From contig JBFWJG010000002.1 of NCBI GenBank assembly GCA_050253335.1, positions 24,269-88,268 on the forward strand: a stretch of DNA of 64,000 nucleotides, read 5' to 3'. The DNA is from Deferribacterales bacterium (GTDB lineage Bacteria; Chrysiogenota; Deferribacteres; Deferribacterales; Geovibrionaceae). Shown here piece by piece: positions 27,001-30,000 of the stretch. A program made the position numbers. Numbering within the stretch: position 1 is the stretch's first letter; each line of letters starts with the position of its first letter.

Positions 27001-30000
27001 TCTTGCTGTTGACGCTGATACAGCATCATCCTGCCACTGAAGTCCCGTTGTATGGTCGGTAACTGTTTCATTTGTCCTGCTGAAAGTGGAAACAGTTATA
27101 CTGAAAGCGGGAAGTGAATCGGTTCCGCCGTGACCGTCCGTAACTGTGATTACTATGCCGCTGTATGTGTCAATATCGCTGTTTGCCGGCGTGCCTGTTA
27201 ACGCACCCGTTGTTGTGCTGAAAGCCGCCCATGAGGGCTTGCCTGTTATGCTGAATTCGAGAGTGTGGCCGTCAGCATCATTTGATGTCGGAGTAAAGCC
27301 GTAAGCTGTTCCCGGAACTGCATAGGAAGCGGGTGTTCCGCTTATTGTCGGCGGTGTGTTCAGAAAGTTTACGGTTATGCTGAACGCGGGGAGTGAAGCC
27401 GTTCCGCCGTGACCGTCCGTAACCGTGATTATTATACCGCTGTCAGTACCCACATTGATGCTTGCAGGTGTGCCTGTCAGAGCACCCGTAGCTGTGCTGA
27501 AAGCCGCCCATGAGGGCTTGTTTGTTATGCTGAATGTCAGCGTGTGGCCGTCCGTATCGTCTGCTGTCGGCGTAAAGCTGTAGGCAGTTCCGTTGGTTAC
27601 TGCGGCGGCGGGTGTTCCGCTTATAGTCGGCGGAGTATTCAGCAGGTTCACAGTTATACTGAACGCGGGGAGTGACGCTGTTCCGCCGTTTCCGTCCGTG
27701 ACTGTGATTATTATACCGCCGTATGTGCCGACATTGCCGTTTGAAGGCGTACCTGTTAAAGCTCCCGTAGCTGTGCTGAAATCTGCCCAGTCGGGCTTGT
27801 TTGCTATACTGAAAGTCAAAGTATCGCCGTCGGAATCATTTACCGTCGGGGTGAATGAGAACTCACTCCCGGCCGTCACCCCTGCTGAGGGGGTTCCGCT
27901 TATTGTCGGCGGTGTGTTATCGAGGGTTACTGTTATACTGAAAGCTGGAAGTGAGGCTGTTCCGCCGCTTCCGTCCGAAACTGAAATAACTATTCCCCCG
28001 TACATTCCTGTATCGGCTTCTGACGGAGTTCCGATGAGTGCTCCTGTGGAAATGTTGAAACCGGCCCACACTGGCTTGTTTTCTATGCTGAATGTAAGTA
28101 CATCGCCGTCGGAGTCATCTGCCGCCGGAATAAATGAATACTCACTGCCTGCAGTTATGCCTGCGGCAGGTGTACCGCTTATTGTCGGCGCATTGTTGCC
28201 GCCCCCTTCGCCGCCCCCGCAGCCGTACAAACTCAAACTGAATAAAAACAACAGTACGTACACAAATCTCATAATAACCTTTCTCCTTAATAATGAAACT
28301 TTTTGAGATGACACTCATCCGTGAAATGATAGATTGAAATGATGTAAACTCTTAACTACTTTACTGATCTTTTTTTAAAAATGAATATCTAATTCACTTT
28401 TTGCCCTTTATTGCTCAATTTAATTTTTTTTATTAGTCATATATAATTACGTATTGTGCACAGATGACGGTTTCTGATGAATTTTAAGTGAGTAAGATGG
28501 CAGGATTCAGTTTCTGTAACCGGACAAATATAAAAGCCGCCTAAAATGGCGGCTTATTTTTCTGAATAATGAGAAAGTCTTAAAATATTTCTGAAGTTAT
28601 TTCATCGCTATGACTGTGTTCACGGCTTCCATGAGCTCCGCCGCGCGCACCGGCTTGTTGAGGTAGATAACCACACCGCCGTCCGTGGCTTTTTTATAGG
28701 TCTTAAACGAGCCGAATGCGGTGATCATGATTGCTTTTGCGTTTTTATCTATCTGTTTCAGTCTTTCCAGAAAGGCGAGCCCGTCCATTTCGGGCATACG
28801 CAGGTCGGTCACCACTATGTCAAATTTATCCTGTTTGAGAAGTTCGATGGCCTTAAACGCATCTTCGGCAGTGCTTACCTTGAAATTTTCCATCTCAAGC
28901 ACTTCCGCATAGCCCATGCGTGTGTGCTCTTCATCGTCCACGACAAGAATCTTAATATCATTCATGTTTATCTCTCGTCATCGTATTTTATTATCTCACC
29001 GTACTGGTAAAGGGGGAACACAGTGGAAATTGCGCTTTTGTAGAGAAGCTGCTGCCTGCCTTCAAAGGATGTGAGTATTGTGTAGTTGTCAAACCCTATG
29101 AGGGAGCCTCTTATCTTAACACCGTTGGTGAGAAAGCTTATAATAGGTGATTTGGATTTGCGCACTTCGTTCAGGAAAATATCCTGCATAGGCGGACGGG
29201 TGTGCCTCGGGTGCTTGCCCTGATGGGTGTGGTAGTAAATTTTGCTGATGAAGTCGATGTCCACAACCGTCTTGGCGGAAGCGACAGTCGCAATATCCCT
29301 CTTAGAAAGCAGAATCTTAATATCAGCATCGTCTATGATGAAGTGATACTGGTCGAAATCCACAATCTTTCCCCTGAAGCGTTCCTTGTTGCGCATAATG
29401 AACATCAAGGGAACGTTCTTATTCCTCGCATTGTGCATGAACACAAATTCAATCTGGGCATAAATAGACATTTTCCCTGCCTTCTAAACTCAAAGAGTAA
29501 TAATATATCCCGTTTTCGGGCTTTAACGTAAATATACCAACACAAATCAATAATGTCAAAAATGTGTTGAACATGCGTGATCTGCTTGGGAATAATCATA
29601 TAGATATAAACATTAGACGGATATTTCAACAATAATAATTCATTTTACTGTATAATGTGTAAAAATGATCAGTGGTTTACAACATAAGTTTTCAACACCG
29701 AAAACCTTAACAGACAAGACTAAATATCACTTGTAAACAGTTTCAAGATACCCTATTATTACTTACTATTAAAATTACATTAATATATAAAGCAGGGGAG
29801 TCCATGAGGTTTAAAGTTGTCAGGGACGATATTTTCCCTTTCGTCCAGTATGCAAACAGCTACACCAGCCCGAAGAACCTGAATACGGTGCTTCAGAACA
29901 TTCTGATCGAAGCCGAAAGCGATACGGTAACCCTTCGTTCAACAAACATGCAGATCGGTTTTTCCGGCTCGCTCAAAGCAGCGGTTGAGGAGATCGGCTC

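Follow-up and report, generated by a model that had tools for sequence, protein, structure and literature searches.

The 64,000-nt stretch of Deferribacterales DNA analysed here (the window) carries a gene, here named hfq2, whose sequence suggests that the Deferribacterales have a second Hfq-type nucleic-acid-binding protein, built of two unlike Sm/Hfq domains per chain. This gene is always the first of a two-gene unit, and the second gene encodes a single-domain response regulator that, judged by its residues, is phosphorylatable. The pairing with the regulator, overlooked in the initial annotation of this DNA, is new here and is the most interesting part of the finding. The unit comprises the following features.

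28968..29471, minus strand: hfq2, the double-Hfq gene (167 aa, 19.6 kDa, pI 9.5; stop codon 28968-28970 included)
29277..29471, minus strand: much-diverged N-terminal Hfq domain (residues 1-65; predicted helix 7-17 and five strands)
29190..29276, minus strand: conserved linker of residues 66-94, basic and rich in His (pI 9.8, 4 His)
29013..29189, minus strand: C-terminal Hfq domain, residues 95-153, near-canonical (PF17209, 86.1 bits)
28971..29012, minus strand: conserved C-terminal tail of residues 154-167, acidic at its tip (pI 4.3)
28597..28965, minus strand: response regulator of a single domain (122 aa), which begins 2 nt past the stop codon of hfq2
29531..29559, minus strand: promoter-like site (TTGACA, 17 nt, TATATT, matching at 11 of 12 positions, with a TG preceding the second hexamer)
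28534..28555, minus strand: terminator-like hairpin (8 pairs, 6 of them G-C, then a T-rich run)

The 167-aa open reading frame lies where the initial annotation had placed it, at 28968-29471 on the minus strand, in window coordinates with no offset. The whole protein matched the Pfam Hfq family (PF17209) at 111.4 bits in two stretches. When each half was scored separately against the curated cut-off of 27 bits, both exceeded it: residues 1-93 gave 30.3 bits (E 3.2e-7) and residues 87-167 gave 86.1 bits. The N-terminal half therefore passes alone, with a match far beyond chance, and the annotated architecture of two Hfq domains, the first much diverged, was borne out. Among relatives the N domain scored 17.8-41 bits, falling under the cut-off in one family (f2) and in one further genome (G067). 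The start codon appears to be right, since the N terminus is kept from residue 1 (A5, E8 and F9 are invariant in 24 rows). dN/dS was 0.006-0.032 for residues 5-167 in the 6 of 12 pairs with computable dS, and 0.000-0.065 for the N domain in the 3 of 12 pairs for which dS could be computed. hfq2 is thus a real gene under strong purifying selection.

Between families, the N domain averaged 68% identity, the linker 66%, the C domain 76% and the tail, the best-kept region, 80%; the canonical Hfq proteins of the same genomes averaged 76%. An alignment of 24 hfq2 proteins had 39 invariant columns, distributed over both domains. Residues D40, K57, F127, D128 and K145 were among them, as the initial annotation had listed; F39, given there as invariant too, was kept in at least 90% of rows. 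The linker contributed D71, K77, Y79, Y80, H90, P93 and P94, and the tail Q156, I160, I161, Y163 and E166.

The two domains differ at the positions that form the RNA sites of Hfq. The C domain (Q96, R104, K105, F113, G117, K119, F127-D128, Y130 and Y144-K145) retains the equivalents of Q8, R16, K17, K/R19, aromatic 25, G29, K31, aromatic 42, Y55 and K56 in 27-32 of 32 rows, and is 41% identical over 69 residues to the canonical Hfq of its own genome. The Sm core (G34, F39-D40, Y42 and K57) is retained in the N domain, which has lost Gln8 (Glu in 30 of 32 rows), aromatic 25, Gly29 and the basic rim. It carries E8, I25, K29, E30, R31 and D47 at RNA-site positions, is variable at position 55, and has a conserved signature of its own (E8, I25, N28-K29-E30-R31, F39-D40, Y42, D47, K57 and D59). 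These residues and its tree position, given below, mark the N domain as a long-branch type of Hfq that has conserved residues of its own. The annotated proposal of two non-equivalent RNA sites, one near-canonical and one altered, is supported at this level.

His57 was found in neither domain in any of the 32 rows, nor was the Sm2-type motif of Hfq, Y-K-H-A-I-S-T with His57. The corresponding position reads Y-K-[T/S/N/Q] in the C domain, with S146 in place of the canonical His57 in this protein, and x-K-[R/Q/K/N/S]-D in the N domain. By contrast, all 30 canonical Deferribacterota Hfq sequences inspected contain the full motif. Gln8 and His57 make the uridine and 3'-end contacts in Hfq structures. 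Because His57 is absent and Gln8 of the N domain is replaced by Glu, classical binding of sRNA 3' tails may be lost in hfq2 rather than altered.

The AlphaFold2 (AF2) model of the hfq2 monomer had a mean pLDDT of 81.0 and a pTM of 0.76. Both domains were modelled at pLDDT 88-96 (the N domain at 94-96), each with an Sm fold of one helix (residues 7-17 and 95-106) followed by five strands. Residues 1-71 of the model aligned by VIA with Hfq from Aquifex (Z 8.8, rmsd 2.1, 71 aligned), from Thermotoga (Z 8.4, rmsd 0.9, 66 aligned) and with a third Hfq chain (Z 8.2, rmsd 0.7, 63 aligned); the C domain matched Hfq chains in Foldseek at TM 0.83-0.95, normalised to the target. For two domains of about 60 residues, a pTM of 0.76 implies that their relative placement is confident, and suggests that the N and C domains are held in a fixed arrangement within one chain. 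This arrangement was predicted without a template, as no solved chain spanning two Hfq domains was found among PDB Hfq sequences. Linker residues 77-90 and the tail end, 163-167, were modelled at pLDDT below 50, so the roles of linker and tail are guesswork.

As annotated, the genome also encodes a canonical Hfq of 74 aa (104.2 bits), on another contig and directly downstream of an IPP-transferase (miaA-type) gene. Across 68 Deferribacterota genomes, hfq2 was present in 34, from six families, and each of these 34 also had canonical Hfq. Both proteins were absent from the 7 genomes of family f6 and the 21 of family f7, 28 in all; this co-loss amounts to at most two related clades. A homologue search yielded 29 proteins of 142-174 aa among 38 candidates at E <= 0.001, with named sources only in Deferribacter, Flexistipes, Deferribacteres and Deferribacterota. 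The conservation of 64-98% claimed initially for Deferribacterota held for 27 of them, and the remaining two were 41-45% identical. Cultivated members named among the search matches were Deferribacter, Denitrovibrio, Calditerrivibrio and Flexistipes.

The regulator matched Pfam Response_reg (PF00072) at 103 bits over residues 6-116, covering profile positions 1-111 of 111, and its D10, D11, D54, T82 and K104 were invariant in all 23 orthologues, as in a receiver. The whole protein, 122 aa, consists of the receiver and has no output domain. It lies directly 3' of hfq2 on the same strand in 34 of 34 genomes by coordinates, and adjoined hfq2 in all 30 loci fetched, where its longest open reading frame starts between 29 nt before and 6 nt after the hfq2 stop codon. 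At E <= 1e-30, a search with the regulator returned exactly one match in each of the 34 hfq2 genomes, always adjoining hfq2, and none in the other 34; no close counterpart was found elsewhere in the 68 genomes.

Promoter-like and terminator-like sites bracket the pair. The promoter-like site ends about 60 nt ahead of the hfq2 start codon, and the hairpin, which can be read on both strands, stands 42 nt past the regulator stop codon. Both are suggestive only, as the consensus scan gave 11 promoter sites in the region against 5.1 expected and the terminator scan gave 2 against 1.3. Sequence data came from four runs in two studies, two labelled RNA and two guessed to be RNA, at 0.07-0.10 of sampled words. 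Eight contigs (151-359 nt, 90% likeness) cover parts of 28724-29551 and the first 47 nt of dnaN (29804-29850), and DNA may be present in these samples. One contig spans 28936-29293, reaching 30 nt into the regulator side where 31 were needed for bridging. A fusion of hfq2 with the regulator was found in 0 of 278 longer candidates (294-2000 aa) at E <= 0.001, which is weak evidence. When three hfq2 chains were co-folded with one regulator, the regulator scored 0.00 in two runs made with no controls and no contacts were reported, a result that has no bearing on binding or on ring closure.

Apart from the regulator, the genes flanking hfq2 differ between families and include EF-Tu, a short-chain dehydrogenase, an aminotransferase, RecR, YceD, a PlsX-type protein, MoeA, a pseudouridine synthase and a sigma-54 activator. 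No histidine kinase or other neighbour near the pair was conserved across families. dnaN-recF-gyrB-gyrA adjoins hfq2 in family f1 only, at 4 of 10 loci. One flank gave a weak transposase-like match of 22.7 bits, under its cut-off of 23. The convergent neighbour with a Fer2 domain was considered as a third member of the system and rejected: it does not adjoin the pair in families f2 and f3, and it occurs in 62 of the 68 genomes, including 27 of the 28 without Hfq. Because families without Hfq have this neighbour too, their lack of hfq2 and of the regulator is not an artefact of assembly. The 332-nt spacer between hfq2 and dnaN (29472-29803) was rejected as a replication origin, having no DnaA box with at most one mismatch. 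No Rfam family reached its gathering score anywhere in the window.

A trimeric hfq2 ring is plausible on structure prediction. Three hfq2 chains would close a six-domain ring through the usual pairing of Sm strand 4 with strand 5, and N-type and C-type domains would alternate around it. Each proximal pocket would be made of one N and one C domain and would lack His57; the distal face and rim would offer three near-canonical sites from the C domains and three altered sites from the N domains. With the domains alternating, RNA binding would be three-fold rather than six-fold, with a specificity unlike that of the cell's canonical Hfq. The regulator, probably co-translated, would feed a two-component signal into hfq2, most likely by binding it when phosphorylated; it could dock on the diverged N domains, on the linker, which is conserved and basic, or on the conserved acidic tail. 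Binding of the regulator would alter which RNAs the hfq2 ring holds. Taken as a whole, a three-chain ring with its own RNA specificity and signal input from the regulator is the best explanation of the data, and we put its chances at about even. A bolder form, in which an unlinked kinase phosphorylates the regulator, which then docks on the pseudo-hexameric ring and opens, closes or re-targets its RNA faces, is doubtful. If true, a two-component signal would act straight on the post-transcriptional level with no transcription factor in between, and an asymmetric ring, with three RNA-type and three adaptor-type domains, would give a protein regulator space on an Hfq ring.

Other assemblies were also considered. 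Six chains could instead come together, with the C domains forming an ordinary homo-hexameric Hfq ring and the N domains forming a second, stacked ring or peripheral adaptors, for example for docking of the regulator. The C domain alone retains nearly all canonical ring and RNA-site residues, it scores 52.5-86.7 bits against our own Hfq profile where the N domain scores 15.6-30.3 and has a branch length of 1.82, and the 29-residue linker could suffice in length; stacked double rings are described in Hfq crystals in the retrieved part of one source (PMC5379935). However, the monomer pTM speaks for a fixed contact between the two domains of each chain, the confidently modelled N domain, with its Sm core and five strands, fits a ring-forming subunit, and the three-copy prediction made with the initial annotation closed a ring. 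We regard the six-chain arrangement as unlikely. It is very unlikely, in our estimate, that hfq2 acts through canonical Hfq, joining 74-aa subunits in mixed rings or capping hexamers, and so tunes the main chaperone while having no RNA clientele of its own. That hfq2 never occurs without canonical Hfq, that both are missing from the same two families and that the C domain resembles the canonical protein of the same cell would all fit such a role, but the co-loss may go back to one or two events among related clades, hfq2 and the canonical gene are on separate contigs, each in its own context, and a two-domain chain suits an even-numbered ring without partners.

hfq2 might also be no RNA chaperone at all. 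It could be a scaffold in ring form, or a protein that binds DNA or nucleotides, with the sole role of output or anchor for the regulator; alternatively, the two genes might merely share a promoter, and their products make no contact. The loss of His57 from both domains, and of further RNA-site residues from the N domain, leans this way, and Sm-like folds in non-RNA roles, namely MscS and zinc-finger-Hfq fusions, are mentioned in the retrieved excerpt of one paper (PMC3710371). Yet the site residues kept in the C domain would be hard to explain without nucleic-acid binding, and hfq2 is basic (pI 9.5), which makes this reading quite unlikely.

Work on Hfq has treated it as a ring of identical subunits with six-fold symmetry. 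The hfq2 lineage would be a natural candidate for a ring with built-in three-fold asymmetry, long kept beside a normal Hfq in the same cell, and would reveal which surfaces of Hfq are dispensable or open to new uses. Its strict pairing with a receiver-only regulator is a concrete candidate connection from two-component signalling to a protein of the Hfq type. The excerpts retrieved report that single-domain response regulators act by binding protein targets. Among the papers listed by our literature search, none paired a regulator of this kind with an Hfq-type protein or described a link of this sort in general. Like known single-domain response regulators, the hfq2 partner comprises only a receiver domain, with the phospho-acceptor pocket intact.

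Tandem Hfq proteins exist in other lineages. Two-domain proteins outside the hfq2 group made up 19 of the best 150 representatives, and 2 of the 10 looked up were named, from Sphingomicrobium and Paenibacillus. NCBIfam holds an Hfq model of 176 positions (NF010691, PRK14091; cut-off 270 bits), which the tandem proteins P0031, P0032 and P0036 matched end to end at 157-213 bits, under the cut-off, with about 145-152 profile positions aligned. hfq2 matched this model with one domain only (residues 92-156, profile positions 20-84, 81 bits), and its distant relative P0030 likewise with one domain, at 46.1 bits. Sun et al. are said to have mentioned, in 2002, a two-domain Hfq in Novosphingobium. Our literature search on tandem or duplicated Hfq gave a relevant match only on Zymomonas: in the part retrieved, Yang et al. 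2010 (PMC2877685) describe two Sm-like domains in the Hfq of Zymomonas mobilis and six other Sphingomonadales and already ask whether three chains form a ring. The initial description of an uncharacterised fused-dimer Hfq lineage was thus overstated; the fused double Hfq and the three-chain ring idea are already in print, and the finding is less new to that extent.

Comparison with the tandem Hfq of Sphingomonadales, such as Z. mobilis ZMO0347, shows what is shared and what is not. In both, a chain of about 145-175 aa contains two Hfq domains with a linker of roughly 15-30 residues between them, and for both a three-chain, six-domain ring is expected, for the sphingomonad protein in the retrieved part of the 2010 study (PMC2877685). 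Neither is solved, and the 35 PDB Hfq sequences found are all single-domain chains of 63-114 aa. Against our own Hfq profile, 13 other tandem proteins scored 47.6-92.3 bits in both domains; among ten hfq2 rows the C domain falls within this range and the N domain lies below it. hfq2 is an extra copy beside canonical Hfq, in a putative operon with a response regulator, unlike the sphingomonad protein, which is presumably its cell's only Hfq. Our quick tree of 79 domain rows and 72 columns leaves the deep forks unresolved. Six sphingomonad-like N domains grouped together in it (support 80), as did their C domains (86), whereas the hfq2 N domains stood apart on a branch of 1.82 (99) and eight hfq2 C domains formed their own group (94). 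Taken at face value, the quick tree would give the hfq2 duplication an origin separate from that of the sphingomonads.

The canonical Hfq homohexamer (PF17209, TIGR02383) shares with hfq2 the Sm fold, an N-terminal helix with five strands, and the Sm1 core of G34 and F39-D40, and the hfq2 C domain is close to the Hfq of Caulobacter, Bacillus and Listeria (E 3e-16 to 1e-14). hfq2 differs in having two unlike domains per chain, no His57, and a conserved linker and tail, and it lies outside the miaA-hfq context, which is occupied in this genome by the 74-aa Hfq. Heteromeric hexamers are mentioned in the retrieved excerpt of PMC3710371. Eukaryotic Sm/Lsm rings, such as the Lsm(6-5-7)2 hexamer, resemble the proposed hfq2 ring in being built from non-identical Sm-fold units with non-equivalent RNA pockets; VIA aligned hfq2 with Lsm chains at Z 5-6, and the relationship is one of fold and not of sequence. 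Diversity among Sm/Lsm units comes from separate paralogous chains, whereas in hfq2 its source would be the fusion of two domains into a single chain.

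On the minus strand of the window, hfq2 encodes a single chain with an N and a C Hfq domain and is followed directly by a gene for a single-domain response regulator (hereafter the regulator). The features of this locus are:

29471 down to 28968, minus strand: hfq2 ORF, ATG start, 167 residues encoded
28597-28965, minus strand: regulator ORF, 122 aa, beginning 2 nt past the hfq2 stop codon
26314-28314, minus strand: 666-aa protein with four Ig-like repeats (He_PIG, Big_9) and two Lcl_C domains, between the regulator and the Fer2 gene
24362-26113, plus strand: Fer2-domain gene, 583 aa, with an N-terminal 2Fe-2S ferredoxin domain; often adjacent and convergent to the hfq2 operon
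29804-36815: dnaN-recF-gyrB-gyrA
About 60 nt upstream of hfq2: promoter-like site (TTGACA, 17 nt, TG-n-TATATT; 11/12 consensus matches, not a mapped end)
42 nt past the regulator: terminator-like G+C-rich hairpin and T run (consensus match, not a mapped end)

The whole hfq2 protein matched the Pfam Hfq model in two stretches (111.4 bits). Scanned alone, residues 1-93 scored 30.3 bits (E 3.2e-7) and residues 87-167 scored 86.1 bits, both above the curated cut-off of 27 bits. The two halves are 28% identical over 54 residues; identity to the canonical Hfq of this genome is 41% for the C half (69 residues) and 23% for the N half. This canonical protein (74 aa, 104.2 bits) is encoded on another contig, between a directly upstream IPP-transferase gene (miaA-type) and a downstream DUF4416 gene. 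The scores bear out the initial annotation, which had described two Hfq domains in one chain, of which the first has diverged strongly, in a genome that also encodes a normal Hfq. The whole protein has a pI of 9.5, with a His-rich linker of pI 9.8 and an acidic tail of pI 4.3.

To place hfq2 within the phylum, we scanned 68 Deferribacterota genomes from ten families (f1-f10) with the Hfq model, calling hfq2 where a single open frame of 169-203 aa contained two matches. It was found in 34 of the 68: f1 16/16 (our genome included), f2 5/6, f3 4/4, f4 3/3, f5 4/4 and f8 2/2. In one genome (G066) the Hfq model gave a single match, and the N domain was visible only to our own Hfq profile. The sole f2 genome without hfq2, which is 92% complete in about 170 contigs, has canonical hfq only, as do all three f10 genomes. 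Canonical Hfq was present in 34/34 hfq2 genomes, split over two contig ends in one of them (G010). The scan gave no Hfq match, canonical or tandem, in f6 (0/7) or f7 (0/21); these 28 genomes belong to two families of the same order, and many are 93-98% complete. Both f9 genomes carry canonical hfq and a 151-aa ORF, the C-terminal 50 residues of which match Hfq (35.9 bits) and the N-terminal ~95 of which have no assignment:

L044, 6057-6512, minus strand: 151-aa Hfq-matching ORF
L043, 5898-6353, plus strand: 151-aa Hfq-matching ORF

The neighbourhood of this ORF differs from that of hfq2, and no response regulator lies beside it at either locus. Judged from translations, its flanks are a large pyridine-nucleotide-disulfide-oxidoreductase-like ORF and an HtpG-like ORF. 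A pattern scan of named genomes placed the hfq2 family only in records titled Deferribacter, Denitrovibrio, Seleniivibrio, Calditerrivibrio, Deferribacteraceae or Deferribacterales and in one titled just 'bacterium'; its one Bacillota-titled match covered a single domain. Among the proteins from an exhaustive search of representatives, P0058 (172 aa) is a distant hfq2-like protein that shares the PPMQDIFLNE junction and has an IIKF tail; our own profile hardly recognises its N domain (8.5 bits).

The regulator consists of a receiver domain alone (Response_reg, 103 bits over 111/111 profile positions). Searching the phylum with it at E ≤ 1e-30 gave a single match in each of 34 genomes out of 68, the same 34 that carry hfq2, and every match adjoins hfq2 by coordinates; the other 34 gave none at this threshold. 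By tblastn of the window genes, the regulator lies directly downstream of hfq2 in 10/10 loci from six families, and among these ten the dnaN-recF-gyrB-gyrA block is on the other side only in the four f1 loci. In 30/30 fetched loci, the start of the longest regulator ORF falls within a span from 29 nt ahead of the hfq2 stop to 6 nt beyond it. D10, D11, D54, T82 and K104 are invariant in 23/23 aligned orthologues, which also conserve family-specific DDEEHTRxGY and ITAFG stretches. The remaining flanks of the pair vary between families and contain no histidine kinase.

We also considered the Fer2 gene as part of the hfq2 system. Its best NCBIfam matches, to AcsV and NqrF, covered only the N-termini of those proteins, and the other ~480 residues had no Pfam match. 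The gene is present in 62/68 genomes, including 27/28 of those lacking Hfq, and we therefore place it outside the hfq2 system. Its presence there also shows that poor assemblies do not explain why f6 and f7 lack hfq2 and the regulator. In a sister genome (G029) only about 70 nt separate the regulator and Fer2 genes, so members of the genus differ by an insertion or deletion of the 2-kb gene for the 666-aa protein. No ORF of at least 100 aa, and thus no dnaA, lies between hfq2 and dnaN. The 9-mer TTATCCACA, a DnaA-box consensus, occurs with at most one mismatch 38 times in the whole window versus 11.4 expected (0/100 shuffles reached 38); none of these matches is in the hfq2-dnaN spacer.

In a word-indexed homologue search with hfq2, 29 of 38 candidates passed E ≤ 0.001; they are 142-174 aa long, 27 at 64-98% identity and two at 41-45%, with Deferribacter, Flexistipes, Deferribacteres and Deferribacterota as the only source names. 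This search reproduces the conservation figures initially reported. Aligning 24 sequences gave 39 invariant columns, some outside the Sm cores: D71, K77, Y79, Y80, H90, P93 and P94 in the linker and Q156, I160, I161, Y163 and E166 in the tail. Mean identity between families was 68% for the N domain, 66% for the linker, 76% for the C domain and 80% for the tail; for canonical Hfq of the same genomes it was 76%. Synonymous sites were saturated in half of the pairs, and in the 6/12 with computable dS, dN/dS over residues 5-167 was 0.006-0.032. For the N domain alone it was 0.000, 0.010 and 0.065 in the three pairs where it could be computed, and these low ratios argue that the N domain is not a decaying copy.

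Using the genome's canonical Hfq as a residue ruler, we compared the RNA-site positions of both domains. Between Q8 and H57 it carries the same residue numbers as E. coli Hfq. Positions 8, 42, 56 and 57 are assigned to the proximal uridine pocket, 25 and 29-31 to the distal A-R-N site and 16, 17, 19 and 47 to the rim patch, with His57 as the 3'-end-sensing histidine.

Residues of hfq2 at presumed RNA-site positions (counts over a 32-row hfq2 alignment)
Gln8: C domain Gln 32/32; N domain Glu 30/32
Arg16: C domain Arg 32/32; N domain mostly kept, 25/32
Lys17: C domain Lys 32/32; N domain varied, uncharged
Arg19: C domain Lys/Arg 31/32; N domain varied, uncharged or acidic
Aromatic 25: C domain aromatic 29/32; N domain Ile 27/32
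Gly29: C domain Gly 29/32; N domain Lys 27/32
Position 30: N domain Glu 28/32
Lys31: C domain Lys 27/32; N domain Arg 28/32
Aromatic 42: C domain aromatic 32/32; N domain Tyr 31/32
Lys47 (rim): N domain Asp 28/32
Tyr55: C domain Tyr 30/32; N domain variable
Lys56: C domain Lys 32/32; N domain Lys 32/32
His57: C domain Thr/Ser/Asn/Gln 32/32; N domain Arg/Gln/Lys/Asn/Ser
Position after 57: N domain Asp 31/32

His57 was found in 0/32 rows in either hfq2 domain and is kept in 30/30 canonical Deferribacterota Hfq sequences examined. Given these position roles, the C domain reads as a nearly complete Hfq unit save His57, and the N domain as presenting a conserved but different surface. Nucleic-acid binding by hfq2 is likely on this sequence evidence.

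An AlphaFold2 model of the hfq2 monomer, built from 32 family members, had a mean pLDDT of 81.0 and a pTM of 0.76. It contains a helix and five strands per domain (H7-17 with E22-65; H95-106 with E109-153), with block-mean pLDDT of 94-96 in the N and 85-93 in the C domain and values below 50 at residues 1-4, 77-90 and 163-167. Because each domain makes up about 40% of the chain, this pTM suggests that the model is confident about their mutual placement. The top Foldseek matches were Hfq chains from Caulobacter (6gwk), Listeria (4noy) and Bacillus (3hsb), at 42-53% identity and all to the C domain. In an exhaustive VIA search, the N domain (model residues 1-71) resembled Hfq chains from Aquifex (5szd_A; Z 8.8, rmsd 2.1, 71 aligned), Thermotoga (4y91_A; Z 8.4, rmsd 0.9, 66 aligned) and Caulobacter (6gwk_A; Z 8.2, rmsd 0.7, 63 aligned), and no solved chain spanning both domains was found. 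With phmmer against the PDB, all 35 sequences were single-domain Hfq (63-114 aa) matching only residues 92-154.

We propose that three hfq2 chains together form a single closed ring with six Sm units, in which N and C domains alternate. Such a ring is suggested by the intact Sm core in both domains together with the rule that Sm units generally join via strands 4 and 5 (PMC3710371), and by the monomer pTM and the three-copy prediction of the initial annotation; on these models we somewhat favour the trimer. Its RNA-binding symmetry would be three-fold, not six-fold, and its pockets would lack His57. The co-translated receiver protein would pass a phosphorylation signal to the ring, most simply by binding it. 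We propose this transfer because the genes are paired in 34/34 genomes and receiver-only response regulators are reported to act via protein contacts. Some functional link between hfq2 and the regulator is very likely; direct binding is a tentative suggestion that we rather doubt, and we put the chances of the full scheme, an alternating trimer ring with a phosphorylation signal from the regulator, at about even.

The initial annotation had regarded fused-dimer Hfq as an uncharacterised lineage and the trimer as a new idea. Both claims of novelty fail, since Yang et al. 2010 (PMC2877685) already described two Sm-like domains in Hfq of Zymomonas mobilis and six other Sphingomonadales and asked whether three proteins suffice for a hexameric ring. 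Our searches, which covered open-access text only, turned up no case in which a tandem Hfq accompanies canonical Hfq as an extra copy, and none in which a response regulator is coupled to an Hfq-type gene. An exhaustive search of representative proteins with hfq2 gave 2137 at E ≤ 0.001, and among the best 150 of these, 19 other proteins had two matched Hfq stretches. Clusters were checked for ten tandem proteins and two were named, Sphingomicrobium sp. and several Paenibacillus species (the P0063 cluster). In a quick, weakly resolved maximum-likelihood tree (79 domains, 72 columns), the N and C domains within each of P0040, P0042, P0070 and P0122 are sisters (support 87-97), six sphingomonad-like N domains form one group (80) and their six C domains another (86), and the hfq2 N domains lie beyond a branch of length 1.82 from all other rows (99). 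Both domains of P0040 are close copies of each other. These groupings thus suggest several origins of tandem Hfq, with P0040, P0063, P0042, P0070 and P0122, which belong to other lineages, apparently arising from separate internal duplications.

Scored with our own Hfq profile, both domains are strong (47.6-92.3 bits) in all 13 of the other tandem proteins tested, whereas in 10/10 hfq2 proteins the N domain reaches 15.6-30.3 bits. The 176-position NCBIfam model NF010691 ('RNA chaperone Hfq') is matched end to end by P0031, P0032 and P0036 (157-213 bits) and by hfq2 with one domain only (81 bits, positions 20-84). Judged by sequence, the Deferribacterales tandem Hfq is the most asymmetric form. 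hfq2 is real and well conserved. Its most notable feature is the response-regulator partner, which never varies; also notable are the strong asymmetry between its domains, the missing His57, the conservation of linker and tail, and the presence of canonical Hfq in the same genomes.
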